NCBI RefSeq assembly: GCF_032062105.1
Contig: NW_026929962.1
Span: 744,001 to 808,000, forward strand
Length of the DNA: 64,000 nt
Direction of reading: 5' to 3'
DNA from: Saccostrea cucullata
Lineage: Eukaryota
In this document: piece by piece, positions 13,707-64,000 of the stretch
How the letters are laid out: every line of letters begins with the position of its first letter
Numbering within the stretch: position 1 is the first letter of the stretch
The notes under the pieces: generated by a model
Database searches by the model: none
Told to the model about the DNA's origin: nothing
What the model saw: the letters and a program-made list of their open reading frames with translations, nothing else
Made by a program: the position numbers and the translations under genes

Positions 13707-16700
13707 TCATGAATTTAATTGTTCTTTTATCAATTTTGTTGCTCTTTCAGCGGCCTGTCTTTTTACTCTAGGCAACGGAGGAATAACATCAACTGCTGGC
13801 TCTTCCTTCGTCATATCACTATCACCATGGTCAGATTCATCGGTGCATTCTATAGGATAAAGTAAATTTAACGGTCGGTTTAATGTTCTTTTGTCAGGTA
13901 ACATTACCTTTCCGGACCCGCATTGTCCATCTTGACTCTTTGTCAAATCGCAAATTCTTCCAATCTTCCAGCTTCCTCTAGGGAGATCTTCTTTGATGAG
14001 AACAACATCACCAATTCTTACCGGCCTGTTGTCTTGAATTCTTTTCCCTTTTAATTTATAGGATGTTCTTTCTCTTAGACTTAAAAGATACTCATCTCTC
14101 CATGTCTTCCAGAATGTATCTAAAATTCGTTGACCTTTCTTCCAAATTGTCAATAAAGTGTTTACAGAACTTGCAACGGGTACATAGTCTGGGTCCATGG
14201 GATCAAAATTTTCACTATCTTGAAGTCCTATTTTTGGATTCAAAGTGAGGAAATGCGCTGGAGTTAGGGTGATGTTTGAATTAATATCGTCTCCAATATA
14301 GACTAAGGGTCTAGAATTCACGACTGCCTCAGCTTCTGCAAGCATCGTTCTCATTTGCTCATTTGTTAAACAGAGTTTTCCTATAGTTTTTCTTAAGCAT
14401 CGTTTGACAACACCAACCAGACGTTCATAAAATCCTCCCATCCATGGTGCAAGTTTGGACATCATTATCAGACGTAACCTTTTCCCAACTTTTATCCAAA
14501 ACCAGGCTTGCAAGTTTCAATTGAGTACCATTATCAGAGATAATTTGTTTTGGCTTGCCCCAACGCGCAATAAATCTCCGTAGTCCTAGTAGAAACTGCT
14601 CTGTGGACATGTCCTGCATGAGTTCAAGATGTATGGCCCTTACTACCAAGCAGGTAAATAGACAGACCCATACCTTTTTATTGCCAGTTTCTGTTTTGAT
14701 GAAGATTGGTCCAAAGTAATCCACTCCTGTGTATGTACGAGGGTTGTCCCATAAAATCGTGGACAAGTTGTCTAATGTGAAAAATAAACATCACTGTGTT
14801 CTGAAATTTTCACTATTTTTTGGTACATATTTTAGTAATATACACAGCAAATTTCAAATAAATATATACATAAATAAACAAATTATGAGATTTTATGCCA
14901 TGTATTGTATCACCTTACGGCGCATGGATTATAACGTCAAAGTGTCTAAAACAGTGTCACGTTTTATCTTTGCTGAAAATGAAGTTGGATGAGTCCGACT
15001 TAAATTTAGGAATTTCATTGATACACATTCTTTAGTCTCCATAACCGAAGAACAAATTGGCATCCTCATGCGATCTTCTGAAGATTTATTAGTAAGTTTC
15101 GGACAATATTCTCACCATCATTCAACTAATAGAAAATCTCATATCGGCGGTCTACTGTGACAGCGTCCTTTGCTATTACATTAGGAGTTTGTCCGTATGT
15201 TTTGTACTCCCCAGGGACTCGATCAGAAAAAAAAAACTTCGCTAAGAAAACTCCTATTTCATTTGTATACTTAAGATATGGTGATATTTTTATAATCTTT
15301 TTTCTTCTATGGTCATTTCAAGTCTCTAAAGTGTCATTACAACATCGAAATAAAACTGAACTGTTCTCCGGTGCGCCGTAACGTCATAAAACGTCGCCAT
15401 TTTTCGTGTGTTGTGTTTACTACTTTCCCATTTCGAATGCTCGAGAAACTGCCAAAAATTAAGCAAATGCCTTGAAATTTTTACAAAGACTACAAAATTG
15501 ATTGTGGAATTGAATTAGGATAATTTTAATCCAAATCTTATGTATATTTTAAACTTTTATTTTGAATTCAAACTTGTGTATTCTTTAGTAAACCCTTGGT
15601 TTTTTGACCGTGCGCCGTAGGACAATACCTCGTGCACATTCAAGCATAATAAGATCTTTATTTTTGCCTATATTTTATCAAAAAAACTATCATGCACTTG
15701 AATATGATAAATAAACATTTACTGAAATTTTCAGCTTAGTGCGCCCATTACTTTTCGAGAAAAACGCTTTGTCCACGGACAACCCTCGTAAATGGTGCTG
15801 ATTCACTCACACGTTTCTTTGGTAGTGGAGGCATCAGTGGCATCTTGTATGGACCACCCTCAAACCGCTTACAGATTGTGCATTGGTGAAGTATTCTTTT
15901 TACTTCTGCTCTTCCCTGCGGAATCCAGTAGTCTTGACGAACCAATGACAGTGTTTGGGAGACTCCAACATGAAATGATTTTCTGTGGATGTAATCAATA
16001 ATCAGTCCCGTCACATGGTTCTTTCTTGGAAGGAGGATAGGAGATCTTGGACCTTCTGTCAACTGAGCATGCTTGAGTCTTCCAATGCATCTGATAATCC
16101 CTTCCTGATCCAATACAAGTCCTAATTGACTAATTAAATTATTTCTCTTATTTTCCTTGAGTGAGGTTTTGACATCACCATAGGTTTGAGTATGGATATT
16201 CTTGATTATATGAATTTTAGCATTCTGTAGTTCTGAGTAAGTTAGATGGTTCCAAGGCATTGGAATTTTCTTCACTCTTTTGATAAACCTGAGAGTCCAT
16301 GCTAAAACTCGAGTAAGGTTTATAAATGATGAAAAATTTTGGTAGTCAATGATGTTTGGATATCCAGTTGAGTCAGAATCTGAGTTGGTTTTTTTTCCGT
16401 TAGGACTCTCCCCAGCCACCAGTTTTGCTTCATAAACTATCTTTGGAGTCTTGCATTCTGATTCTATGACACTCTGCATTTCTTTACAGGTTTGTTGACT
16501 GTTCCATGAAGGCCATTCATCTTTCCTTTTAATTAACCATTCTGGACCATTCCACCATTGTTCAAATTCTTGAAGAGTTTTAACTGTTGTTCCTCTGGTT
16601 GCAATATCAGCTGGATTATCCTTTGTAGACACATATTGAAAAGTGATATCCTTGTTGTTTCTGATTTCTTTTACTCTGTTTTCCACAAAAGTTTTCAGAG

Positions 16701-19700
16701 GTCTCTTCATTCTTATCCAATGTAATACACATTGGGAATCGCTCCAAAGGATCTTTTCTGTGACAGGTAACTTCAGTTGTTGTTCAACAAAGTTAATGCA
16801 TCGGACTCCAATGACAACAGCCAATAGTTCTAATCTAGGCAGTGTTATTTTCTTGAGTGGCACTAATCGAGTTTTTGAAAACAGCAGGTTGACAGTACTT
16901 CTTTGTTTGTTGCTCTGGTGTAAATAGACCGCACAGGCGTACGCTTTAGTTGATGCATCACAAAAGCACATTAAATTGTATGTCACTGTACCAGTGAGTC
17001 CTATAAAACGAGGAATAGGGCAATTGGGAATATCATCCAGGTCTGCGGATATATTTTCCCGGCGCTGAATGTCTTCTTTGGTCAGTTCTTCATCCCACTC
17101 TTTCTTTTGGTTCCATAATGTTTGTAGAAACAACTTTCTCAAAGTAACTGGGGTGAAGAATCCAAGTGGATCAAAAACAGAAGCAATTCTTTGAAGGACT
17201 TTCCTCTTGGTGATAGGTGGAATATGAGTTTCATCTTTTGGACTGTTTATGAATAGGGAGTCCTCAGAAAGTTTCCAAGACAAACCAAGAATTTTTATGG
17301 TTTCTCTGTTTGCTTGATCAGCTTGAGGAATACACTGGCTAAACTCTGTGGAGTTAGATGCCCAGTCTCGTAAATTCATTGACATGGTACTGAAGATTTC
17401 TTTGGCGTCTGTATATAGTTTCCTAGCCTCTGAGACGGACTCTACACCAGTGATAACATTATCCACGTAGATATTGCTTCTTATGTTTTCAGCTGTTGCA
17501 GTGTTGTAGTTTCCAAGATGGTAATCTAAAGTTGCAGCCAATAGAAAATGGCTTGATATAACTCCAAATGGAACTCTCGTAAATCTGTATACTTGAATAT
17601 TGTTCTCTGTGGATGGAGTTTCAATATTCTTTAACCAAAAGAATCTTGTCACATCTCTGTCTTTTCCTTGTAATTCAATCTGTAGAAATGCCTTTTCTAT
17701 GTCAGCAATAATTGCAATCCTTTTCATTCTAAATCTCAACAACAGTCCACACAAATCATTTAGCATCACTGGTCCTCTGTAAAGACATTCGTTAAGGCTG
17801 TTACACTCTGGTTTGACCTTTGCCGATGCATCATAGACGATCCGTACTTTTGTGGTAGGCTTTGTTGGATCAATGACAGCATGATGGGGTATGTAGTGTT
17901 TGACACTATTCTTCACTTCACTACTCTTTGTCACCTTTTCAATTATGCCTTGCTTGCACTGGTCCTGAATTATTCCATCATATTGGTGAAGCAGCTCAGG
18001 GTTCTTTTTTAGTTTTTGAAGTAGAGATTTCAACCTTCCAAAAGCAAGTTCTCTGTTCTCTGGGAGTTCAGGTTGCTCATCCTTCCAGGGCCAAGTGACT
18101 TTATATCTACCATTGACTAGTTTTATTGTGTCGTTAAAGTTTTTTAAAGCCTTGTCATCATCTGATGAGTGGGGCTGATCCTTGATTCCAATAGTTTCCA
18201 AGTTACAGTACTCGTCTAGTGATGGCTTCAAGGGCAAACATTCAAATATCGACAGAGGAATGAAGACAATATTCTGTTGTTAGATTGTTTCCATTTACAA
18301 TCAGCATTTGGTGTAGATTATCTCTGGATACCTCAAAGTTAGCTTGTGTTCGTCCAGTGAGAATCCATCCTACCTTTGATGAGAGCAAGTAAAGTCCATG
18401 GTCAACTTCAATTTTTTCTGATGATACCAAATCAAGATAATAGTCATTCCCAATAAGGATGTCTATGGTTGAATTCTCTGTAGTTTTTGGTAAGGTATCT
18501 GCAAACTGTAGATGTTTCCATTGGCACTGTACCTTTTCAATGATGTTAGGTGGTAACGGTCTTCTGTGTATTGGTCCGGTTATTTGAGGCCCAACATTTG
18601 CTTCAATTCTCATGTAGTGTCCATCCTTCAGTTTAATTCTTAAAGATACATTTGGAGTTTTTACTATTTTTGGTTTCGTGGATCCAAAGGTGACAAGTGA
18701 TATTTCCTCTGTTCTTTTTCTTTTCAAATTCAATCTTGAAGCTAATTCCTCCGTAACATACGTTCTTTGAGATCCAGAGTCCATGAGAATTCTGATTGTT
18801 TCAAATATCGATCCAATCAGATCTGATGCATCAATTTTTGCAGTTTGCATTAGGACCATACTTCCTGATGACAGTAGGCTGTTTTCTCGAACATTGTTAA
18901 CTGTTTCTGAGTCACATAGTTCAGAGGATTCAACAAAGTGTGAGTTTTCTTGTTGCAGAGACTTCGGTGATGTTTTTTTGTCTGATGGCAATGGAAACAT
19001 GGTTTGTCGACTTTGCAGTCCTTGCTAAGATGACCTGGCAAAAGACAAATGTAACATCTTCCCTTAATCTTCTGTTTTCTGTCTTCAACTGTCCTGAATT
19101 CTTGGCATTCATCACTCCACTGATTTTGTTCACAGAAGATACAAATGGGATACTTTCTTTGAATTTTGTTTCTTCTTGGAGATTCTTTAAATGATGTTGT
19201 TAAGGCTTCCGCAGATGTATGTTTTCTTTCATGTTCATATACCATTCCAGGTGATGGGGGTATTCTAGCAGGTTGTTCTTCACGACCGGCTAGGTTTTCC
19301 ATATCTGTAGACTCTCTGGTTGCTATGAGTTATCAAGAAACATTCTCAGCTTTTGCACAGTCCACTTCTCTTTCTTTCCTTTCTGTATTTCTAATTGTAA
19401 TCTGGCTTCTTTTGGTTACTTTGTTATAATCATGGAAACAAAGACATCCTGGTTTACGTCCTGTTTCGATGCTTCTAGGCTGCGCATATGCTTTTCTAAA
19501 TCATCAAATAGTCTACGGAGACTGGAAGTATTATTGAGTGCAGGCTTAATGTTTATAAGGTCCACGTAATGTTTGTTAATTACAGACTGCACATCGTTCC
19601 GAATCGTTCTTTCAATATGGAGAGAGCTACATCAAAATTTTCATGGGAGAGCATGAGGCCGGAAATAGCAGATTGTGCCTTTCCTTCCATTCTACTTTTC

Positions 19701-23064: not shown

Positions 23065-23679
23065 TAAAAAGTGATTTAGAAATTGAAAAGTACAAAAAAA
23101 ATATAAGACCTGTATTTAAAAATGTGTGTCAAGTTCGTGAGTTAGTCGAGGCCTATTACCATTGTCCACTTAACACCTTGATATTTACACGTACATTTTG
23201 TCCAGTGTGCCTGTTAAAAATATTTTTAAATATTGAGATGTTCTATAAATTACCCTGAATGATTAAAGCAAAGGTGCAGAATATTAAAACCTTCAGACAC
23301 ATAAATTTTGTTTCCCTTGAATCAATTCAAAATTATTTCGTTATACCTGGATTCACATCTTTAAATTCCATAACATTGAATTGCCTGGAGGAAATGAGAA
23401 ATGTAGTGAATGATACAATGTGTAACAAAATTATAATCTGTCTATACAGAAAATCAGTACTTTCTGATGTGACCCTCGTTCAGAATACGTACACTGATGA
23501 ATAATTAACGTAGTGAGCAGTGGACAATATGGTCATTTTTTTTCAACGTAAAATGTTGACAAATTGCATTGTTATGTATACCAATCAGCTAAACACACAA
23601 TCGATGGATTCTGCACGTTTTTTTTTTCAGTGATTAAAATACAGAGGATTTGTCAATACTAGCTGTTAAATAAGAGAAC

Positions 23680-24945
23680 ATGAAGGCTTCAGATTTGACC
23701 GTGCTGGCGATATTTTACACAATTATTGGACGTGTATCAGGACAATCGGGGACAGACATGAGAAATCTATATACCTACCTCTTTACGACTAGTGGCTACA
23801 ACAATAACATACGTCCGGTTGTGAACCAGAGTGTACCTACACAGGTATCAGTAGACCTTCTGTTGACAGGTCTTCTTGGGATAGACGAAGCTAAGCAGCA
23901 AATGGGATCTGTCGGTACTCTAACTATAAAATGGCGGGACGAATTCCTCTCTTGGACCCCGTCATCTTATGGAGATGCAATGTATTTTGATCTTCCACAA
24001 GATCTTATTTGGAAGCCGGATTTACAAATTTTCAATGGCCTGACTGACTTTACTAACTTGGGTGGAAGTTTTATGACATTGCGGGTGTTTAGTACAGGAG
24101 ATGTTATTTGGGTGCCATATAAAGTATTTCAGACTAAATGTAGGATTGACGTCACCTACTTTCCCTTTGACCGACAGAAGTGCCAGATAACGATGGTAGC
24201 CTGGAACAGTGATGCATTGTCAGTGTCTCTTACAATAGGGACAAACGGCATGCAAATAGATGAAGATATAAATGATGGACAATGGACCTTGTCGAATCCA
24301 AGAGCTGATGTCAGAATAGATGATAACCAGTCCTTGATTACGTTTGAATTAATGTTAAAAAGAAAACCAAAAGTCTTCGTTCTCAATATAATGATTCCTA
24401 TGTTTTTTCTTATAGTTCTAGATGTGTTTACTTTCATAATCCCTAACGATAGCGGAGAGAAAATATCATACTCTGTTGCTGTTATGTTGGCGTTATCTAT
24501 ATTTATGACAGTAGTGACTAGTATACTTCCGCCTACGTCATATTCTACGTCATATCTGGAAATGTATATTATACTTATTTTGGCATTAGGAACTTTGATA
24601 CTTATTATAACGGCAATCTCTTTAAGAATTCATGAAAGGGGCCAGGATAGAGAAATACCTTTTTGGCTACAGAAATTGATAGTGCTTTCTTGGAAATTAA
24701 ATTGTCGGTCTCGAAACAATTCAGTTCGGTTTATTTATCCGAACAAAATGGACAGTATAAGTAACAACGAAGTAGAGATGGATGTTAAAAATACGAAGGA
24801 CACAATGAATATAAATAATAAAGAAAATGAGTCTGTTTTCTGGACTGATGTTACATCAGCGGTAGATTTCTTCATGTTTTGGATATTTTCATTTATTATT
24901 TTGATAGCATCTGCTTCTCTGCTTGGACTTGCAGCCTTCAGTTAA
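23680..24945 (+). CDS. Intronless Cys-loop ligand-gated ion channel, nAChR-like non-alpha subunit (421 aa), paralog of 11090-12325
   Basis: Signal peptide; WKPDL; Cys loop CRIDVTYFPFDRQKC; SGEKIS; four TM helices; colinear with the first paralog. Confidence 0.93.
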   Translation: MKASDLTVLAIFYTIIGRVSGQSGTDMRNLYTYLFTTSGYNNNIRPVVNQSVPTQVSVDLLLTGLLGIDEAKQQMGSVGTLTIKWRDEFLSWTPSSYGDAMYFDLPQDLIWKPDLQIFNGLTDFTNLGGSFMTLRVFSTGDVIWVPYKVFQTKCRIDVTYFPFDRQKCQITMVAWNSDALSVSLTIGTNGMQIDEDINDGQWTLSNPRADVRIDDNQSLITFELMLKRKPKVFVLNIMIPMFFLIVLDVFTFIIPNDSGEKISYSVAVMLALSIFMTVVTSILPPTSYSTSYLEMYIILILALGTLILIITAISLRIHERGQDREIPFWLQKLIVLSWKLNCRSRNNSVRFIYPNKMDSISNNEVEMDVKNTKDTMNINNKENESVFWTDVTSAVDFFMFWIFSFIILIASASLLGLAAFS

Positions 24946-52300: not shown

Positions 52301-55300
52301 CGCCAATGCACTTTCTGTTTTTCGTATTATTGTTATATTATGTCAAACTTTAAATTATCTCAAAATTCAGTTGGGTTGGGTTGGGTGGGGAGCCATTCAG
52401 TTTCAGTTGGGGGCACTATTAATTATCAAAAATTCCTTTGGTAAGCAAAAAAGAAAAAAAAAACAGTCATCAGATTTTTTGTAAGGGACACAAACATATA
52501 GTAGCTTTGTTTTATACTGCCAGTAGTTATCTATGTATCGGCAAAATTATTGGGGGTGGAGTGGGTGGCCATGATCTTATTAATTTAGAAGAAACCAACT
52601 TTATCCAGAATTACCTTCAAGAGTGTCAATGCCCCCATCTACTCCAGATAATGCAGTTTCTCCAATAATGGACTGTATTTTGTCCTCCATTGGGGTCACG
52701 CTGCAATCCGCTGGCAGTTGACCGCCACCAGTCCTCACTTGCTCGCGCTTTAATTTTGAAATTTTTTTCTTTGTCTCACTACATAGAACACTCCATTTCT
52801 TGTTTAGTTCATCTGCTGTACGTAAATGAGAAGTATTTACAGCATTAACTTTCTCACAGATTAAGTCCCATTCTCCCTTTTTCGCCTGATTTGTCACAGA
52901 TGAATTCTGTCTGGAGAATATCACGTTCTTCCTTTTCTCCACTTCTTCAGTCAATATAGAAATTTCTGCAGTTGAAAAATTTGGGTTCCTCTTTGGTCGA
53001 GCCATTATGATTTTGTGGGCGGGAAAGCATGTATACTTTTAAGCACGGACTCTTTACATGGACTAGACAATGCAATGCACTCATTCATGACGAAATGAAA
53101 GACACTTTAACTGCTGACTGGAGTGTTCGATTTAGGTTGCCGAAACCAAAAACCAAAAATATTTGTTTCCCAGTACTTTGTAATTAGATAAAATGTTTTT
53201 GTTAGTCATTAAATGTTTTTAACACTTTTCCCCATCGTTTCTTCTACCCACCAAGACATGTACATGTATAATAATTGTGTAAGAATTGGAAGTACAAATC
53301 AATTTACGTGCATGAAATGTACGATTGATCGTTGATACTATGTGACTTTTCTGTGCACGTACATGTGTGTGTTTAACATACATGTTGTAACAATACACCT
53401 ATTTAAGAAAAACAAATATCATATTACGAGACTGCCTATTAATTTCTGCATACAACATACAAATTAATTTTTACCTCACAATTTTTTGGTGAGGGGATTA
53501 AGGGGGAGAGGTGAAACCAAGTAGCTCGTAAAGGTTATATATGAATAGTTTAAGATATGACTTAGGAAAAAAATAAGATAAGAAAGTTTTGTGAAACAGC
53601 TATGACAAAACTTACGAACATCCTAAGTTATAACTTAGGCATATCCTAAGTCATCTTCGCTAGCCAAGGGTTTCCGATCCGATACCTACTCTACAACCCT
53701 TGGCAGATTTAGTCCTATCAATCGGGAACTTTGATTGCGCCGCCTATCGCCGTAATTGAGTTAAGTCCCTTGAAGCTCTTTAATATTTGTCCAATGAAAA
53801 TAGCTGTAACATACGTAGATCAATATGACGTTTGAAACAATATGGCGACCTCCATGTGGAATATATCCAAACAACTTCATACAGCTGTGGGCAGTGGGCA
53901 CACCTCAAAAGTGGTAGAAAATATCCTTCTTCGTGGATTTTTAGTCAAGAGTTTGACACTACTTTCTACTTGTTGCCGTATCAATTATTATCAATGAGCC
54001 GTGACATTTGATTGGCTTAAATTGATGCACCTAAAATGCGGAACACGGACTAATGTGGTCCTTTCAATAATTCTTGAAAACATATATAATTAAAAGAAAA
54101 AAATTCAAATTAATTAATCCCTCGTTTTTTTAAGCATAGATCACGTCATAACTTTCATCCCTTGTAAATATCACTTTTATTTTGCATAAAACACGAACAG
54201 ACTTTAATTCAGCCGAAAATCGTCGATTAGTAAAAACCTTGCGTAGACTCGGACTTCGCAGCCAATCAAATTCGTTTGCACGAGTTCTAAAATTTTCGGC
54301 CAAATCTGCCAAGGGTTGTAGAGTAGGTATCGGATCGGAAACCCTTGGCTAGCGAAGATGATCCTAAGTTGTATCTTAGGAAATATCTTAGGAAATCTTT
54401 GTGAAACGGGCCCCAGGTTTATCCATACTGGATAAACCCCATTATGTACGTATTATATTATCTACCCTTTGTAATCATCTTATCAGACAAATAAACTCGC
54501 TTGTTTTAAATTTACCAAAATTTGAAAAAAAAAAAAGAAATGAAGACGAAAGTTAATTGGTCATTAGAGATAGCTTAAAAAGGTTAGGAGGTAGATGCTA
54601 TATACAGTTTGTTAAAAGAGTATGTCGAGAATAAGGGAATGAAAGGTAATTCATTGTCCAATGCTGTAATTAAATGAAACATGGAGATAACGAACATTAT
54701 TCAAGATCACAAGTCCATAAAACAATACAAAATAGGAGCTGAGCAAACACAGACCTCCAAAACATCAGAGTGTGATCAGGTGCCATGGAGTAGAAAGTAT
54801 CCCTTGCCCATATCATAGATTACCATTAACGTTATTTTCAAGTGAAATATCCAAATATGAATCAGTTGTGTCAGACTCTATGATATCTTCTATTTCAAGC
54901 TCACCGGGATATATCGTATCGACACAAGAATGGAAATTACCTTTGTTAATTGATAATACGCCGTCGATATACATGTATCTAAATGTTGATTTGAAGGCCA
55001 CAGCAAGTGTTTCCTTTTTTTCACGTTTAAGGTTTTGGACATATTTTGCTTCATATGAATACAAAAATAGGCCTGCTAATAACGGAGCGCAATTGGTACC
55101 CATGGGATTTTTAATAGATTGTTTGAATACCTGGTCTCCAAATACCACATAGATATTGTCAATCAGAAACTCAAGCATCTTTTTATGTCAACTTCAGATT
55201 ACAATCTGAATGTTTGTTATCAAAATAATTTTGCAAATGAGCTTTGACAAGGTAAGTAACTTTACGAGTTTCCTTTTTATTGAAAAAGCAGCTGTCAAGG

Positions 55301-56397
55301 ATATAAAAAATCCTGGACTTTGATTCATTGTGGGGAATGGTTGTGTATAAAGTTGAAAAGTCGAAGTTTTTAAGCTGTTGATTTTTGGTAAAATCTTGTG
55401 ATTTCAAATTGTCCAAGAGTTCCTTGGATTTTTTACGTATCCACATCTGATATTCACCACTTTTCGATTTTATTGTTGCACAATACTCTTGAACTTTCCC
55501 CTTCACTAATGTTAATATCTTAGTAGGGAGTAAAGAAAAAGACTTGATTGAGCATTTACTGGAACCCGCCATGTATCTTTGTTTGTAAGGATTTTTATGA
55601 AGTTTTGGAATACAATATAGATATGGAGACAAAAATCATTTTGGATCTTTGGGATTTTAAAAATTAAACCCAAGTTCTTCTAAACTACAATTTATATAAT
55701 GAGCCTTTCAAACAAAGACAATGCTGTTACCTGCTTTGTCGGCAGGGACCAGTACGTACTGATCATGTAATCCATCTAATTCTCTAAAGTGAAGAAATAT
55801 AACCCCAACCGTGCAAAGAAAGTACGGGATCTGGCTCCGGGGCCATAAAACTGAGATAAGCTCATCTTTGATCTTAGTCTCACTTTTTCAAAAGAGATTC
55901 TAAGATCAAAAGTGAGCACGTCTCAATTTTATGGCCCATAGCATGTAGCGTTATGATCAATACCCTAGCAGTACAGTTCTACAGCTAAAGAAAAAATAAT
56001 AACACTGACTAAAACTTTTATTACACTAATTTTATAGAACACGATTTTACTAATTAAATTGATAAAGTAGTTCGGAACAAGAAAAAAAACATAATGCTTT
56101 GTAAACATTTTTGTAAGCACTTTTGCTAACGCGAGTCATGTATTTTTCAAGCAACTGTTACAACACAAGTTTCGTTTCTAAAACTTAAATATAACATGTT
56201 ATTGTTCACGTTTTTAATTACCGGTCAAAATCAACAAAATTGAACTCACGTGAATAGTTACACATTATTTGAGTTATAAATTCATCTTCTTCCGCTGTCT
56301 CTATGTGAGCCAAATAACCACCATGTATTTCACACATTTTCTGCTATAAAGTACATCAAATTCACACACGCCTACAGATCATTATATATATATATAT

Positions 56398-56437
<40 letters not shown>

Positions 56438-56705
56438 TAAATACATTTTAAAACACAGTCTTACATAAACAGCCCTATTTAAATAAAATAAAAGCCCTAT
56501 TACCACCCCATCCATCCATGACTCCGCTTCTGTTGACACATGATAACAGGAGTTCTTGAATGGTTGCCAGCCAGGTGGACATCCAATACCTAGAAATAGT
56601 TCATATTGAATTCAAATCTTATGAGAGAGAGAGAGAGAGAGACTTACCTGTACTAATTAGAGCTGTACATATTAATAGTGCTATTTTCATGTCGACTGCC
56701 AACAT
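43367..56705 (-). CDS. C-type lectin gene 3 (closest to gene 1), 5 exons, 158 aa, 12.4-kb intron 3
   Basis: Exons 56648-56705, 56504-56589, 56250-56340, 43658-43868, 43367-43397. Exons 2-4 (86/91/211) equal gene 1; in frame; ends YICEKKNIVIGSLVG*. The exon-4 acceptor is weak (attgaag). Confidence 0.78.
44089..44352. mobile_element. Degenerate hAT-like MITE
   Basis: CATTATCAGGCCAAA / TTTGGCCTGATACTG; 8-bp flanks attacatg and catacatg. Confidence 0.55.
46079..46350. repeat. Two diverged tandem copies of an about 138-bp unit
   Basis: ttatgccaaatgggtcaaggg...gcacaaatcgtgcacaaattaggtacaaat occurs twice. Confidence 0.8.
50111..51140 (+). pseudogene. Harbinger (HARBI1-like) DDE transposase with one frameshift near 50465
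   Basis: ALRFFATGSFQ HTH region in ORF 50111-50479; GAIDGTHI, SSHDS, LLGDSGY, VIERCFG in ORF 50469-51140. Confidence 0.9.
51246..53005 (-). CDS. Harbinger Myb/SANT-like DNA-binding protein, 3 exons, 248 aa, C-terminal coiled coil
   Basis: Exons 52615-53005, 51736-51861, 51246-51475; GT-AG, phases 1 and 1, fully open. RNPNFSTAE..W..I..VNA..R..KKW..RTGGG; tail IEKERLDIEKKRLDVE. Confidence 0.85.
51979..52308. mobile_element. MITE in Myb gene intron 1, apparent 5-bp TSD CACTT
   Basis: CATAGGCGTCGGAA...TTCCGACGCCAATG; CACTT at 51974-51978 and 52309-52313. Confidence 0.75.
53652..54360. mobile_element. MITE with about 59-bp perfect TIR and 9-bp TSD, inside the Harbinger right end
   Basis: CATCTTCGCTAGCCAAGGGTTTCCGATCCGATACCTACTCTACAACCCTTGGCAGATTT at both ends; ATCCTAAGT duplicated. 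Confidence 0.92.
54675..55760 (-). mobile_element. Penelope-like RT fragment, decayed
   Basis: PYLYCIPKLHKNPYKQRY, FDFSTLYTTIPH, PMGTNCAPLLA, RYMYIDG (catalytic DD lost), then the shared Penelope tail. Confidence 0.82.
55840..55937. mobile_element. 98-bp hairpin with GGGCC...GGCCC ends (Harbinger-like MITE)
   Basis: gggccataaaactgaga...tctcaattttatggccc, imperfect palindrome over its whole length; no clear TSD. Confidence 0.5.
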
Positions 56706-58515
56706 GTCCGTTACGTAAGATGTCCTAATTCTATGACTGCCAGATCAAAATAAGTCGACACTCGATTAAAGTAAGATATAGATTACATCATTTTATATCT
56801 GTCCTGGTTTATGCATAAAAATCATTTTTAAATTTAATACCGGTAATTATTCTTAATTAAAAAAAATCAACAAAATAATTTAATTAAAATAAACCTGTTA
56901 ACAGTTGCTTAAAGGTCATCAGAATATCTAATGCTACATGCAATTGATGATTGAAGCTAGAAAAATATTTTATTCTGTTCCTTAGCAAAACGTCAATGAC
57001 ATTGTGCATAATAAGAAACTGAATACAAACGTCAATGACATTGTGCATAATAAGTAACTGAATACACGTACTCTTTTGAGAATTTAGGGCGTGAAAAACG
57101 TGAATGAATATGCAAATTATTATGTTTTAGGCTCTATTGATAGTAACAAATGGATTAATCTACAGTTTCATATGACTAGCTTGAAAAGGCTTTCAGGTTA
57201 TGAAAGCAAAACTGACTTACCCTTTATAAAAATCTTTAAAAATCATTATACTACTCACTGTTTGTTATAAATTTAAATCTCGAATCTAATTCAGAGAGGT
57301 ATTTCATACATTTGGCCATATGCGAGCAAAGTTTGAATTTTGCAAAAAAAAAAAACCCATTCCCATAAGGACCCATGACGACCAATGCATTTTGGTTGTC
57401 CAGTGTCTTAGCTGTAGACCTTTAATTGTAACCAACTATTAATTTAGAATTTGAATTCAAAAATGCTGTAATTGCTCAGACATATTTTTCATCAACAAAA
57501 GTAGATTTTATTGAAATAAAAGTTTCAAACTGAGCTAAAAGGATCTGTTACGAATTTTCCCCCATGACCAAAATAACCCACAGATTGGATCACCCCAATT
57601 TATGCCCTGAATATTTAATCTATGTATCGTAAATTTATTTGTAGATATATGGAAATATTACCAATTATCGTATGTCATTAATGTATGCTTTATAATTCAT
57701 TGTATATGTTTATTTCATGGATATCCTTTCGTTGTAATGTACAAACCCGAATTTCCTCCATATACCAGCCCAATCGTAATAGCAAATGGCCGTCTGGCAT
57801 TGTTATACGATCAAGGTACCCAAATCCATCTTGGCATCGTTACCAAAACAATTCCCAAACATCAGATCATCCCTTTTCCCGCATTTGTAATGATAAAGCC
57901 TTTACTTGATGCAAAAGTTGTTTGTGTTATCATACAAACGTCGCGCGAATGCTGGCGGTACCGCTGGTTATTCGCACGTGAACTAATTCGGCCCTAGTGA
58001 TGAAAGGGTATATAAAGAAGGCTCTTTGGACTTTTTCTTCAGTCTGGGACGTTGGTCAGACTCATTAACATCTGACCAGCTCAGAGAATCCCAGCTCCCC
58101 AGAAGTGGGTAAAATCTGATGCCCCATATTGGGTAAATAAACCCAATCTGCCAAGCCCGGCAGATCCATACCCAATTGATTCACTGATGCCAATCCCCGG
58201 CAGATCCATACCCAATTGATTCATTGATGCCAATCCCGGCGGATCCATACCCCAATTGATTCATTGTTTATAAATTCATCCGGGTAACCCGGTCGAGCCG
58301 GATACCTTTTTATTGTCGGGTAACCCATAATTTATTATTGCCTAATTGCCAATTCTTATTGTTATTTGTTATTCATTGTTTGCACCATAATAAATTTTAT
58401 AAATTTGCAACCTGACTTTTCATTTAGAGTTAAAGGGTAAAATTCAGAAACAGGAGACCCACAATAATTTATTTTCATTGTAACAAACCCTGGAACAGGC
58501 GGAAACGTTACAATT

Positions 58516-58533
58516 TGGTGTCAGAAGTGGGAT
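58516..58533 (+). promoter_or_regulatory. Primer-binding site, tRNA-Leu type
   Basis: TGGTGTCAGAAGTGGGAT, 3 nt after the 5' LTR. Confidence 0.85.
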
Positions 58534-58645
58534 ATTTTAATTATATCTTGTTTTTGTTTACCCTAAGAAAAAGAAAACCATTTCTTAATATTTTTGTAAA
58601 TTTTTATTATTTCAAATTTTTCTTTTGGATACAAATTTTTGTACA

Positions 58646-60085
58646 ATGGAGGCTGATGAAAGCTTTGAAATTACTTTTAAACCGCACTCAATTTCACCCA
58701 ATGTTCATGTTAATTCTCATGACCGCCCGGATATCCCAAGTCACCATTCCATGCCGGCATCAAATTCAATGCTACATGTACCTGCAAGAGATAATCAACT
58801 TGATGTTATTCTCTCAATGTTGCATGATATGAAATCCAAATTTGAACAAGATAGTCAAGAAATGCGAATGAAATTTCAGCATGTTGAAAAACAAAATGAA
58901 ATCCTGCAAAGGGATAATGCTGAACTTCGAAAATTATATAGTGACAGGGGAGACAATCATCACAGTCCCAGTGCCCCGTCACATACAACCCAATCCAAAA
59001 CCAACAATGTAAATGAGTCCAATTGTCCCTACAGTGTCTCATTTGGGTCCAAAGATTGCCCCCGGTCCATTTCCATGAATGACCATCCAATAAATGAGTT
59101 TTCAACTCCTCAAGAAAACAGAACACATTACCCAGTGTCTGTTAAATCCAACGCACCCGTAAAGTTACAAGATTTTGATGGGTCGGAGGATTTTAATGAT
59201 TTCCTGGTCCATTTTGAAATTCTGGTAACCTTGCATGGCTGGGACTATAGAACAAAATCCCTCTACTTAGCCAGCAGCCTTGCAGGTAGTGCCAGAGCTT
59301 TGCTCACTGAGTTAAATGAAACCCAAAGAACAGATTACAAGTGTTTAGTGGATATTTTAAACAGACGATTCGGGTCTGTAGAAAGAGCGGAACTTTTTAG
59401 AGCCCAACTTAAAACTCGGGTTAAGGGAAGCAATGAAACCATATCTGAACTGGCCCAATCCATTAAGAAATTAACCCGACAGGCCTACACAACCACTGAT
59501 CAAAGTGTGCTATGTATCTTAGCCCTAGAACAATTCATAGATGCCCTACCTGACCCTGAAATCCGTCTCCGATTAAGAGAGGCAAGGCCCAAAGACATAA
59601 ATGAAGCTGAAATTTTGGCCATTCGGTTGGAAACTTATAGATTGGCAGATGCCCAAAGAAATAAAACTGTCCATGCCATTAACCAAACAGAACCCATTCA
59701 AAGCTTGCATGATGACCTTAAATCTCTTACCCAAGAAATCAGAGCTCTAGTAAGAAATTGTCAAATGCCTACCCAAAATATGGCAGGAACCCCATATCCA
59801 CATTATTTATATGAGAACTCATACCAAACCCACTATCAGAATTTTTCCAATATGGGCTCATATGAAAACTTGGTCAGATCCGACTACCAAAACAATAGAC
59901 CAACAAATTATGGACCAAGACCCCAGGTTTCACCCTACCAAGGAAATTCTAACAATTGGAAAAATTTCCCCAAGAACACAAGTCAAAATCAATTCCGACC
60001 TCAAAATCAGGGAAACTACCCTGCGTCGAATTCGGGGGTCGGAACTCGACAGGTTCAAGGGGCAGGCCCCAACACTTGCCATTAA
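58646..60085 (+). CDS. gag: Gypsy-type Gag (479 aa)
   Basis: Coiled-coil N-terminus; capsid-like FDGSEDFNDFLVHFE...W...LASSLAGSA...RF...FRAQL..R...ETISELAQSIKKL...FIDALPD; Q/N-rich tail. Confidence 0.88.
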   Translation: MEADESFEITFKPHSISPNVHVNSHDRPDIPSHHSMPASNSMLHVPARDNQLDVILSMLHDMKSKFEQDSQEMRMKFQHVEKQNEILQRDNAELRKLYSDRGDNHHSPSAPSHTTQSKTNNVNESNCPYSVSFGSKDCPRSISMNDHPINEFSTPQENRTHYPVSVKSNAPVKLQDFDGSEDFNDFLVHFEILVTLHGWDYRTKSLYLASSLAGSARALLTELNETQRTDYKCLVDILNRRFGSVERAELFRAQLKTRVKGSNETISELAQSIKKLTRQAYTTTDQSVLCILALEQFIDALPDPEIRLRLREARPKDINEAEILAIRLETYRLADAQRNKTVHAINQTEPIQSLHDDLKSLTQEIRALVRNCQMPTQNMAGTPYPHYLYENSYQTHYQNFSNMGSYENLVRSDYQNNRPTNYGPRPQVSPYQGNSNNWKNFPKNTSQNQFRPQNQGNYPASNSGVGTRQVQGAGPNTCH

Positions 60086-61269
60086 ATATGGCTCAACCTC
60101 TCTCACTAAAACCCAAACCCAATATTGAAAATAAAACAGAATTTGAATCCGAGAAAGAAATCCCTTGTTATACTGAACCTACCCCCACAGAAATTTTAGT
60201 GAGAGATAGAAATGGGGAAAATGATGGAATTTATGTTATTGGGAAAATTGGAAATAAAGAAACAAATGTACTAGTTGATACTGGTGCTAGTGTGACCATT
60301 ATCAGTACCCAATTCTTTGAAAATATAGATACTATGGAAAAGCCCCAAATTACTCCAGTATCTATCAAACTTACATCTGCAAGTGGTGATGTAATCCCAG
60401 TTAAGGGAGAATGCCCAATCAAAATATCCCTTGAAAATTTTCAAGTTACCCATAAAGTACTTGTGGCCAATATACAAAACCCATGCGTATTGGGATTAGA
60501 TTTTATGACTCAGAATTCATGTGACCTTTTGGTAAAACAGATGAAACTAAAGATACAGGGTCTAGACATTCCCTGCTTTAGTAAATCTTGTGTAAAAGTT
60601 GTGTCTTGTGGCAAGATAAGTCTTGCCGAGGATATTGGAAATCCTCCCCATTGTGATTATGTTGCTCCTGCAAAGGGAGATAACCCTTTATTTAAGGATG
60701 AGGTTGGAATAATAGAACCTATCCCAAGTTTTGTTGAGAAAAATGAATTGTTGATTACCCAAACCCCTTTAACTGTAGACGAAGAAGTCACAGTTTGTCA
60801 CATGAATATGAAAGACAAATGTAGCAAACTATATGAGAATACCCAAAGTGCCACAGTCAAATGTATTGACAAAATAGTAAATGTATTGGAAGACCCATCC
60901 AATACCAATACCATTAATGCTTTTAGCCAAGAGCTCAACCCCCAATATCCAGACCACTTGCAATGTATTAATGTTCAGAAAATCCCCAAAGAAATTATGA
61001 ATGAACCAAAGCAAGAGTTCCATTTGAATGAAAATTGCCATGAAGCTTTCGACAAACTCCAAAGAGCCCTGACAAATTCCCCAAGCTTATCCTACCCCAA
61101 CAATGAAAAATTACAAAATGGTGTTGGAAAATCATATGTACCATACCCATCACTTAACCCAGACATGATGATCCCTAGTTCATACCTTGCCGTGAGGAAG
61201 CCTTCCAAACCGTATGATGTACTTTCGGACATTGATCCTGGACCTTTCCAAATGACGCTGGATTCGTAA
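59956..61269 (+). CDS. pro: Aspartic protease ORF in -1 frame to gag, with a pol remnant tail
   Basis: LVDTGASVT...VLGLDF; later FHLNENCHEAFDKLQRALTNSPSLSYP (RT-RNase H connection remnant); no YxDD or integrase motifs. Confidence 0.85.
   Translation: MEKFPQEHKSKSIPTSKSGKLPCVEFGGRNSTGSRGRPQHLPLNMAQPLSLKPKPNIENKTEFESEKEIPCYTEPTPTEILVRDRNGENDGIYVIGKIGNKETNVLVDTGASVTIISTQFFENIDTMEKPQITPVSIKLTSASGDVIPVKGECPIKISLENFQVTHKVLVANIQNPCVLGLDFMTQNSCDLLVKQMKLKIQGLDIPCFSKSCVKVVSCGKISLAEDIGNPPHCDYVAPAKGDNPLFKDEVGIIEPIPSFVEKNELLITQTPLTVDEEVTVCHMNMKDKCSKLYENTQSATVKCIDKIVNVLEDPSNTNTINAFSQELNPQYPDHLQCINVQKIPKEIMNEPKQEFHLNENCHEAFDKLQRALTNSPSLSYPNNEKLQNGVGKSYVPYPSLNPDMMIPSSYLAVRKPSKPYDVLSDIDPGPFQMTLDS
60010..60070 (+). 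promoter_or_regulatory. -1 programmed ribosomal frameshift signal
   Basis: G GGA AAC in gag frame at 60010-60016; 8-nt spacer; stem 60025-60033 / 60042-60050; loop can pair with GGCCCC at 60065-60070. Confidence 0.75.
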
Positions 61270-62978
61270 TACACGGACGTGCACTGGACCTTTTGGATAT
61301 TTCAAAGGACTATATCGTATAACTTTGTGAACTTTATGATGATACTTGTGAATATTCGTGATGTGGATCGAGATCTGTGATTTGTATCCGTCGTGACTTT
61401 TCTATTCCAATGGATCCAGGATTGGTAAGAAGTGATGAACTGTGATGAACAAAAACATTTTGGTAAAAGTAAATGTATTGATAATGGATGAACTGTTATT
61501 CATATTATTGTTTTTCATAACTATGATTCATAACTATTGACCACATTGTTATTATTGATATGTATGTATTTTTGTGGCCCCTGATTATGTTTATTCATAT
61601 TGCAAATGTTACTTTTCATGACAATATTCCCATGAAATACAGTCCCAAAATTGAGATTTGATAAAACGACCCAACATTCGGGACGAATGTTTTCATGGAG
61701 GGGGAGCTCTGTTACGAATTTTCCCCCATGACCAAAATAACCCACAGATTGGATCACCCCAATTTATGCCCTGAATATTTAATCTATGTATCGTAAATTT
61801 ATTTGTAGATATCATGGGAATATTACCAATTATCGTATGTCATTAATGTATGCTTTATAATTCATTGTATATGTTTATTTCATGGATATCCTTTCGTTGT
61901 AATGTACAAACCCGAATTTCCTCCATATACCAGCCCAATCGTAATAGCAAATGGCCGTCTGGCATTGTTATACGATCAAGGTACCCAAATCCATCTTGGC
62001 ATCGTTACCAAAACAATTCCCAAACATCAGATCATCCCTTTTCCCGCATTTGTAATGATAAAGCCTTTACTTGATGCAAAAGTTATTTGTGTTACCATAC
62101 AAACGTCGCGCGAATACTGGCGGTACCGCTGGTTATTCGCACGTGAACTAATTCGGCCCTAGTGATGAAAGGGTATATAAAGAAGGCTCTTTGGACTTTT
62201 TCTTCAGTCTGGGACGTTGGTCAGACTCATTAACATCTGACCAGCTCAGAAAATCCCAGCTCCCCAGAAGTGGGTAAAATCTGATGCCCCGTATTGGGTA
62301 AATAAACCCAATCTGCCAAGCCCGGCAGATCCATACCCAATTGATTCACTGATGCCAATCCCCGGCAGATCCATACCCAATTGATTCATTGATGCCAATC
62401 CCGGCGGATCCATACCCCAATTGATTCATTGTTTATAAATTCATCCGGGTAACCCGGTCGAGCCGGATACCTTTTTATTGTCGGGTAACCCATAATTTAT
62501 TATTGCCTAATTGCCAATTCTTATTGTTATTTGTTATTCATTGTTTGCACCATAATAAATTTTATAAATTTGCAACCTGACTTTTCATTTAGAGTTAAAG
62601 GGTAAAATTCAGAAACAGGAGACCCACAATAATTTATTTTCATTGTAACAAACCCTGGAACAGGCGGAAACGTTACAGATCAAATATGGAAGTCAAACTA
62701 TATCTGTTTAAGAAGAAAGGAAAGATAGCAGAAAAGCTAAAACTTTTACAATGCAAGGCAAAAGAAGACATCGCGATTTATATGTACGTTTTGCTCCAAT
62801 AACGGATTTGATGTTTATTCCCACAATTTCACAAATGCACATAGAATTTATTGATAGAAAAACTAAGTATATTATTGATACTCTATAATTAGTAAATTAA
62901 GAACAAATACAGATCATGATACAAATAAGATTTTATTCAGATTCTGTAATGACAGATTTCTTACATTTAGTTAATCAG

Positions 62979-63167: not shown

Positions 63168-64000
63168 CCCTGACTGATAGAATATGAAAATAACGAACAC
63201 ATATTATCAGTATTATTTTCAATATTATTTTCAATATGATCTTATGAATACTCGCCTTTTTTCACAGACATATGGCCGATGTTCATCACAATCATCGTCG
63301 TCCCATTGACGGTTCGCCAGTCTTATTGACAGACAGTTTTCCCCATTCATATTGTTAGGCCTTCCATGAGCAAAATTGGTGAAATTGAATTTCAATCCGA
63401 TTGGTTCCCATACCCATGTGCCTTCTATCGTCCAATCAGATCCTCCTATCCAGAAGGAGGAGCCTGAAATCACAAAATCTTTTAACGAAAGCTTCAATCA
63501 GAATATTTTGTGAGATATTTTTGATGTTTGTTGAATTTAGCTTTGCCCTCCTGAAAAGCAATTGATTATATTAGTAAAATACTTTTTCATGAAGATGGGG
63601 GTAAATGTGTGAAATAATCTTTTTTTCCGTTTAAACAATTTTTACAAAAGAAATATAGAGTTTCTCTTCTTTTTTCTAAATAAATTACTTGAATTTTCAA
63701 ATAAAAATCCACGAACATAGCTTTCTTCAAATATTGAAAATCATTCAAAATAACTTTTGAAAACTGACACTGGGAAACGATATTGTCGTTAGCATTTTTC
63801 AAAAATAATATTGAGTGTGTAAAGAATAAGTTTTTCAGAGCTTAAGAAAAACATTAATGCATAAAACAGAAATAAAGTGCAGAATTACACTTTTTAGCAT
63901 TTAATTGAAAGAAATAAACACTTACTGTGTGATTTTTGTAGCAGAGACACTATGAATGCATTAGTGTCTCTGTCCATAATATGTGCAAGGTGTCCGCCAT
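62979..64000 (-). CDS. C-type lectin gene 4, partial (exons 3-5), GC-AG last intron
   Basis: Exons 63926->64000, 63256-63463, 62979-63006: GGHLAHI...SSSFWIGGSD..RPNN..C..WDD..C...YVCEKRSLYPSLVG*. Confidence 0.82.
63092..63163. repeat. (GA)n microsatellite in lectin 4 last intron
   Basis: Pure GA run. Confidence 0.95.

Follow-up and report, generated by a model that had tools for sequence, protein, structure and literature searches.

A Gag-protease-only Ty3/gypsy family of Saccostrea cucullata and its probable capture of 5' modules from pol-bearing relatives

Is a retrotransposon that has kept only its Gag and protease frames the debris of an ordinary element, or can it belong to a lineage that persists in this form? 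The question is raised by a Ty3/gypsy-type long terminal repeat (LTR) retrotransposon of 5132 bp, located at positions 57546-62677 of a 64,000-nucleotide stretch of Saccostrea cucullata DNA (RefSeq assembly GCF_032062105.1, contig NW_026929962.1, positions 744,001 to 808,000, forward strand). The whole stretch is called the window here and coordinates refer to it; L-numbers denote loci and F-numbers pol-bearing families, all in the window's own genome assembly. An initial annotation, made from the letters of the window, had proposed a non-autonomous lineage that uses its own Gag and protease and borrows reverse transcriptase (RT) and integrase in trans. This proposal is supported by a deletion junction shared among copies, by their target-site duplications, by selection on the retained frames and by the pol-bearing relatives of the element. 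With a probability of roughly 0.75, the element belongs, as a young copy, to a multicopy Ty3/gypsy family (family A) that has selected Gag and protease and lacks RT and integrase, likely shares particles with pol-bearing relatives and likely switched helpers by capturing 5' modules. Post-insertion decay does not explain it.

The element lies on the plus strand and is bounded by paired LTRs (57546-58512, 967 bp, and 61710-62677, 968 bp) that start with TG, end with CA and are 99.3% identical, with 6 substitutions and 1 gap over 968 columns. The target-site duplication GATC is found at 57542-57545 and matches its right copy at 62678-62681. The primer-binding site (58516-58533) is complementary to the transfer RNA tRNA-Leu(CAG) and pairs with the 3' end of a tRNA-Leu(CAG) gene of the same genome, where two of four loci are called tRNA-Leu. 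The polypurine tract lies at 61697-61706. The gag frame (58646-60085, 479 aa) contains the capsid at about 59150-59710, which gives a SCAN-like profile match. The LTR identity of about 99%, the target duplication, the primer site, the polypurine tract and the 479-aa gag frame were described in the initial annotation and are borne out. The open protease frame (59953-61269) was also correctly seen, with a length of 438 codons instead of the 437 given. It is in the -1 frame relative to gag and overlaps it by 133 nt, and the overlap contains a candidate -1 frameshift heptamer, G GGA AAC, at 60010-60016. Heptamers of this kind cause -1 frameshifts. The same heptamer is present in 25 of 26 family-A loci and in all nine loci examined of a second family, family B.

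The retropepsin domain (60217-60567; catalytic Asp codon 60277-60279, in DTGA) is followed by an open spacer that in complete elements separates protease from RT (60568-61008), by the junction of a 900-nt RT-core deletion (61009-61017) with a 35-codon scrap of the RT thumb and connection (together 61009-61113), and by a decayed N-terminal RNase H remnant with a tail (61114-61269), located after a second, in-frame deletion of 60 nt. The 3' untranslated region (61270-61696) ends with about 95 nt before the LTR that resemble family F41. Pfam recognises the protease and only positions 2-29 of RT_RNaseH_2 in the protease frame; RT core and integrase are not detected by Pfam in the element. The predicted structure of this frame is confident only at residues 12-133, the protease, with a predicted local distance difference test score (pLDDT) below 50 afterwards, and a fold search with the model matches retroviral-type proteases, that is, the retropepsin fold only. 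The earlier statement that RT core and integrase are gone therefore stands, while RNase H is not wholly gone.

The structure is not confined to the window. A first genome search returned many collinear copies of 72-100% identity. Family A was gathered by searching the genome with the deleted 3' part and collapsing duplicates by shared flanks; the best 40 candidates were scored per search (150 for protein), and copy counts are lower bounds. The distinct insertions of family A number at least 36 and fall into three subfamilies: A1a (8, including the window's copy), A1b (12) and A2 (16). Both gag and protease frames are open in 22 of the 36. The RT-deletion junction is spanned in 40 of 45 loci, corresponding to 34 of the 36 insertions. 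It is not spanned in four loci that bear pol, in L009, which is just below threshold, or in the further-deleted L020/21. Exact 4-bp target duplications, mostly different from each other, flank 16 of the 36 insertions and two more have one mismatch, the remainder having damaged or unread ends. LTR pairs differ by 0-3% in 21 family-A loci and are identical in L012 and L023. Five solo LTRs of the window's type are also present, each with its own target duplication. Copies with the same junction and different target duplications, which the initial annotation had named as a check, are thus at hand, and its counter-scenario of a single-copy structure among relatives with full pol failed, the structure being multicopy. 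A protein search of other species gave four relatives, none with the junction; the database covers genomes of this type poorly, so this does not imply absence elsewhere. Two further forms of copy were seen. L020/L021 is a 3.1-kb A1a copy that lost most of gag and protease and has paired LTRs and the target duplication CTAC. Head-to-tail Gag-protease arrays, partly near-identical, occur at L010/L011, L067 and L068 with periods of 6392, 5151 and about 5150 bp.

What family A has lost can be read from relatives in this genome that carry pol and are about 9 kb long: F41 (a single insertion, L040/L041), F42 (L042, L044) and F47 (L047, L048, L080, L081), besides more distant families. Their order is gag, protease-RT-RNase H-integrase and then a frame with a BTB domain, and their RT is closest to that of Ty3 among solved structures (L041, L054). 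Judged against F41 and F42, an in-frame deletion has removed 900 nt of RT core from family A, which retains 35 codons of thumb and connection and the decayed start of RNase H. A1 has lost a further 60 nt in frame relative to A2. Between the middle of RNase H and the final ~100 nt upstream of the polypurine tract, nothing recognisable is left, and integrase, the rest of RNase H and the BTB-domain ORF3 are absent. At least three deletions are needed because the RNase H remnant persists and A2 retains 60 nt more than the window's subfamily; the initial annotation had called for at least two frame-preserving deletions, and just the first two are in frame. The 900-nt junction lies in short homology at both ends, AAGCAAGA / AAACAAGA in L042. 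A retro-copy of a spliced gag-protease RNA was considered as the source of the deletion and rejected, since the junction lacks GT..AG and RNA reads do not show such a joint. Candidates for a helper with the same LTR and primer site, whose identification the initial annotation had proposed, are the pol-bearing relatives that share primer site, U5 and leader; the family-A U3 and an uninterrupted gag and pol were not found in them. Among the best 40 hits there is no pol-bearing element with a family-A U3. None of the 19 LTR-only hits fetched is followed by primer site and leader, and nine of them have exact target duplications.

The third frame of the relatives is an observation in its own right. 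It encodes about 390-415 aa after integrase (L041:6566-7804, with matching frames in L044, L050, L053, L056 and L080) and has a C-terminal BTB_2 (KCTD-type) domain in all six frames scanned, and a weak C2H2 finger in two. It is lost in all Gag-protease derivatives. No gypsy element with a BTB gene was found in the literature searched, here and below a scope that excludes subscription journals, Repbase and its reports, and supplements.

Family A is not the only family of this design. Family B (L060-L068, L075-L077, L086, L087, L090-L092; LTRs of 1.3 kb) is a second Gag-protease-only family with a protease about 50% identical. Its junction is different and in frame, is spanned in 16 of 21 loci, and leaves the same RT connection helix in place. 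Family B has kin of its own that bear RT and are otherwise deleted, L088/L089, which shows that it arose independently. Family C (L045:3862-9289, nested in a family-A copy, and L119-L128) is unrelated. Its elements, likewise Gag(CCHC)-protease-only, end right after the protease and have LTRs of 1.4 kb and a different primer site. Most of the protease-to-LTR stretch of family C is covered at 20 places, nine of the 11 loci examined have paired LTRs, and there is no connection scrap. Gag-protease-only elements thus have at least three origins in this genome, and two of the three families kept the connection helix, which may reflect either function or favoured breakpoints. For an animal genome this shows that such elements are not debris but a way of life maintained by selection.

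Selection on the retained frames was estimated as pairwise Nei-Gojobori ratios of nonsynonymous to synonymous substitution rates (dN/dS) with codon-bootstrap intervals. The purifying selection on gag-pro that the initial annotation suggested looking for is seen in capsid, with dN/dS of 0.23 within A1a, 0.06 within A1b and 0.11 within A2, and in protease, with 0.34, 0.56 and 0.48, respectively, and 0.39-0.44 between subfamilies. In family B the values are 0.07 for capsid, 0.35 for protease and 0.34 (0.15-0.75) for the scrap. The catalytic Asp is retained in all 22 open family-A frames listed. Indels shared by at least two copies are in frame in seven cases and frameshifting in two from the protease N-terminus to the scrap, compared to 8 and 42 for the same class in the 3' untranslated region (families A and B pooled; Fisher p=5e-4). 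Because of dN/dS, the kept Asp, the indel pattern and the heptamer, capsid and protease were evidently constrained during the spread of the family. The flanking parts behave differently. The spacer has dN/dS of 0.7-1.6 in family A, about 1, vs 0.24-0.29 between F41 and F42, and appears to decay within its open frame; the tail has 0.6-1.5. The connection scrap has 0.24 within A2, 0.27-0.31 between A1 and A2 and 1.01 within A1b, and its conserved Trp is Leu throughout family A. A universal need for the scrap was rejected on the last two points and on family C, which lives without it.

The second main feature of family A, which the initial annotation had not noticed, is that its 5' part has more than one origin. 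The window element is 94.6% identical to the F47 copy L047 over 58149-59659 but only 73-77% in the protease region, and its U3 is 72% identical to that of F41. Identities in bins show that the subfamilies share U3, the gag C-terminus, protease, spacer and 3' untranslated region, and differ from R to capsid. Phylogenies of the two parts disagree accordingly. In a tree of protease plus spacer (L047 left out, F47 represented by L048), the 21 family-A rows form one clade (100/99) and a grouping of A1a with F47 is rejected in the approximately unbiased test (p-AU 7e-5). In the capsid tree (L026 and L054 left out), A1a and F47 together are monophyletic (100/99), whereas monophyly of family A is rejected (p-AU 1e-85). 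Module matching in 21 copies, for the last 200 nt of the LTR and then for leader plus 5' gag, gave a different best match for each subfamily: F47 for A1a in 5/5 copies (95-100% and 96-97%, to L047), F41 for A1b in 6/6 (92-97% and 90-92%) and F42 for A2 in 10/10 (93-96% and 88-91%, to L042), with off-diagonal pairings of 71-86%.

The crossovers of the window element map to about 58149 and about 59588, the latter in frame near the capsid end. The first is probably in R, as 58149 lies between the TATA box (58009) and a conserved AATAAA (about 58389). U3 and TATA of the 5' LTR are thus of family-A type and the sequence from ~58149 is F47-like; the captured module (58149-59588) comprises the 3' part of R, U5, primer site, leader and gag to near the capsid end, and gag is chimeric, F47-type to about 59588 and family-A type from there. 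The 3' LTR has the same U3(A)/U5(F47) mosaic as the 5' LTR, and both LTRs of each copy bear the same mosaic. F47 is the likely donor, since its distance from family A is about the same in capsid as in protease and since it has a U3 of its own, which is also seen in two solo LTRs flanked by target duplications. A 40-bp tandem repeat within R (58156-58275 and 62321-62440) begins at the crossover, and repeats at this position differ among the three subfamilies. Interleaved family-A stretches in L080 (about 2530-3560, element orientation) were considered as a reciprocal exchange and set aside as a likely artefact of assembly consensus; from L080 only the U5, gag and RT matches were used.

How could such an element move and acquire its mosaic? 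We infer that it makes particles and borrows RT and integrase in trans. Gag and a Gag-protease fusion would be produced via -1 frameshifting at G GGA AAC, and the element's Gag would co-assemble with a helper Gag-Pol that provides all three enzymes, RT, RNase H and integrase. Judging from the mouse element IAP 1delta1, for which a cis effect is reported (PMC6466679), the Gag encoded by the element probably promotes packaging of the element's own RNA. The mosaic may have originated in a particle with one family-A RNA and one helper RNA, in which the enzymes would have come from a pol-bearing element because family A has no RT and integrase. Strong-stop DNA from the helper 5' end would jump to the family-A 3' end, which would give a crossover in R with the U3 of one element and the U5 of the other. 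RT would then switch back to the helper RNA inside gag and so place helper leader and capsid on the pol-less backbone. The captured capsid and packaging signal would fit the new helper, and the element's own protease would process the chimeric Gag. Co-packaging of RNAs and template transfer are known steps of reverse transcription (PMC6894440); we apply them to family A by inference.

Several observations weigh against this reading or narrow it. None of the seven pol-bearing insertions (F41 1, F42 2, F47 4) has uninterrupted gag and pol, pol being frameshifted in F41 and F42 and F47 being disrupted by stops, deletions or insertions; some of these breaks may be assembly errors. RNA evidence is scarce: each of three raw runs of 11-13 million records gave 87-164 reads, only 4 of them at 99% identity or more, depth is 0 over 58796-59356, most of the A1a capsid has no reads, and the F41 copy is nearly without reads over RT and integrase. 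The reads come mostly from copies other than the window's, and a run available as Logan contigs (X1) gave only small shares and may contain DNA. A hairpin 3' of the heptamer recurs, but its stability does not exceed that of shuffled sequences (window z -1.4). The dN/dS values come from open-frame copies only, broken-frame copies being left out, and from pairs that are not independent; protease constraint in family A is weaker than between F41 and F42 (0.14), and the A1b interval includes 1 (0.28-1.16). The gap events counted among the indels come from an alignment and can overlap. Finally, the number of captures is uncertain. Synonymous divergence (dS) in 5' gag (0.31 for A1b-F41, 0.34 for A2-F42) is close to that in protease (0.34 and 0.39), so one of these two pairings may be ancestral. 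The A1b-A2 contrast (dS 0.80 in 5' gag vs 0.18 in protease) needs one swap, so that three captures are unproven and at least two are required in all.

A more far-reaching version is possible but doubtful. It holds that the pol-less backbone is a long-lived generalist parasite that outlives its helpers by repeated capture of an R/U5-to-capsid cassette, keeping its promoter, its protease and the 35-residue RT connection helix, which the second family kept independently and which may dock to helper Gag-Pol. For such docking, folding gave no confident model beyond protease residues 12-133. A rival to the main reading holds that the Gag-protease family is selected and the 5' swaps are incidental to co-packaging, any related Gag-Pol mobilising any subfamily. 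The primer site is common to all families, recombination between co-packaged RNAs is routine (PMC6894440), L012 has an extra capsid swap with F41, and one of the three pairings may be ancestral as said. Against it, each recombinant founded an expanded subfamily (8, 12 and 16 insertions), and the same functional block was exchanged while U3, protease and spacer remained of family-A type in all 21 copies tested, which makes incidental swapping unlikely.

It is considerably less probable that only Gag matters and that protease is a slowly decaying passenger, open merely because the RNA has to be translatable. The spacer does evolve at dN/dS about 1 in an open frame, protease is less constrained (0.34-0.56) than between pol-bearing families, and 3 of the 22 open frames are altered in or beside the DTG (DMG, DTS, DTGT), with two more reading DTGV and DTGS. 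A passenger is nevertheless at odds with a protease dN/dS that stays below 1 in family B (interval 0.21-0.58) and in all but one of the six family-A comparisons, with the catalytic Asp in 22/22 family-A and 9/9 family-B frames and the conserved heptamer, and with three independent families that all end their deletion at the protease. Post-insertion decay, segmental duplication or misassembly of an ordinary full-length element is barely credible. Duplicates or tandem arrays do exist (L030/32/35/37, L020/21, L002/3, L010/11), and the pol-bearing L080 is a patchwork of family-A letters that resembles a consensus artefact. After collapsing, the shared junction of 34 of 36 insertions and their distinct exact target duplications refute this explanation, and the mosaic common to both LTRs of each copy and the five mosaic-type solo LTRs speak against it as well. 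Equally remote is a host-domesticated capsid or restriction factor, or a regulator of neighbouring lectin genes, for which strong capsid constraint and the location between two lectin-like genes might be cited and against which stand dispersed, young copies with LTRs still paired, scarce RNA mostly from other copies, and a left flank that is single-copy in the assembly, where no second (empty) allele was found for comparison.

How does a selected Gag-protease family that captures helper modules relate to known systems? With open Gag and protease, absent RT and integrase and amplification in deleted form, the element has the design called 'semi-autonomous' in the wheat Gag-Pro gypsy elements RLG_Sabrina_SA and RLG_WHAM (PMC9744471). 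In wheat the two frames are likewise intact, RT and integrase are missing and copies are numerous; an autonomous partner (Wilma) is inferred there. The plant pair retains little homology to its partner, whereas family A has close relatives and a mapped junction, keeps an RT connection scrap and exchanged gag with pol-bearing families. Gag-protease-only ATHILA elements of Brassicaceae lost about 3 kb with RT, RNase H and integrase in several families; they are the commonest form and outnumber complete elements 934 to 440 (bioRxiv 10.64898/2026.03.20.713144). There, in a plant lineage, recurrence is ascribed to a recombination hotspot, and 5'-module swaps are not mentioned in the available text. 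Family A does not descend from plant Athila or Sabrina; its backbone nests among pol-bearing elements of this animal genome.

In the 'host switches' of wheat RLC_Angela, non-autonomous lineages exchange LTRs (PMC9744471); as in family A, the interior is one clade and the ends group with different autonomous partners. Angela differs in that its coding sequence is dead and the LTR is exchanged, whereas here U3 stays and R/U5, primer site, leader and a working gag are exchanged. LTR swapping is reportedly also known from soybean, to go by a title of Du et al. from 2010. The TR-GAG elements of plants are short non-autonomous LTR elements with an intact Gag frame (PMC4350172), below 4 kb and with this frame alone; at 5132 bp and with a second, protease frame, the element is not one of them. 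Mouse IAP 1delta1, likewise an LTR element of an animal, has an internal deletion that preserves the frame; it depends on proteins supplied in trans, and its own translated product helps in cis (PMC6466679). It is a betaretrovirus-like endogenous retrovirus, its deletion removes part of gag as well as pol, and Gag is also needed in trans. The word 'non-autonomous' is absent from the main text of a survey of mollusc LTR elements (PMC6238403), and the literature searched contains no animal Gag-protease family with swaps of gag-bearing modules. The remark of the initial annotation that such elements are little described in molluscs agrees with this search, while the Gag-protease-only design itself is well described in plants. 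The design is thus known. New is that a single backbone has repeatedly taken up a U5-leader-capsid module, from pol-bearing families that differ between the subfamilies, and that this capture is mapped. It provides crossover positions for what would be a helper switch including the capsid gene. With three subfamilies that share a backbone and each match a different putative helper, family A would be a natural experiment on what determines the specificity of co-assembly and packaging among LTR retrotransposons. Annotation pipelines that rely on RT or integrase would overlook such families, which here exceed their pol-bearing kin in number by about 5:1 (36 vs 7).

The element lies among C-type lectin genes. 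A lectin-like ATG at 56704 (minus strand) is about 840 bp from the 5' LTR, as the initial annotation had stated for its lectin 3. On the other side, a Lectin_C exon (63234-63497) ends about 550 bp from the 3' LTR, with a candidate poly(A) signal about 250 bp from the LTR. No effect of the element on the lectin genes was demonstrated in this analysis. Four tandem C-type lectin end exons are found on the minus strand at 27590-27832, 37688-37924, 43657-43881 and 63234-63497. For the gene that begins at 56704, the interval 44000-57600 yielded no end exon, and its last exon may therefore be 43657-43881. The putative intron contains a DDE_Tnp_4 transposase frame (50448-51140) and an element with 60-bp inverted repeats (53651-54361). 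Elsewhere in the window, two long, uninterrupted frames for ligand-gated ion channel subunits, with Neur_chan_LBD and membrane region, lie on the plus strand at 11006-12325 and 23674-24945, and a BEL/Pao element (about 13700-19000, minus strand) is located between them.

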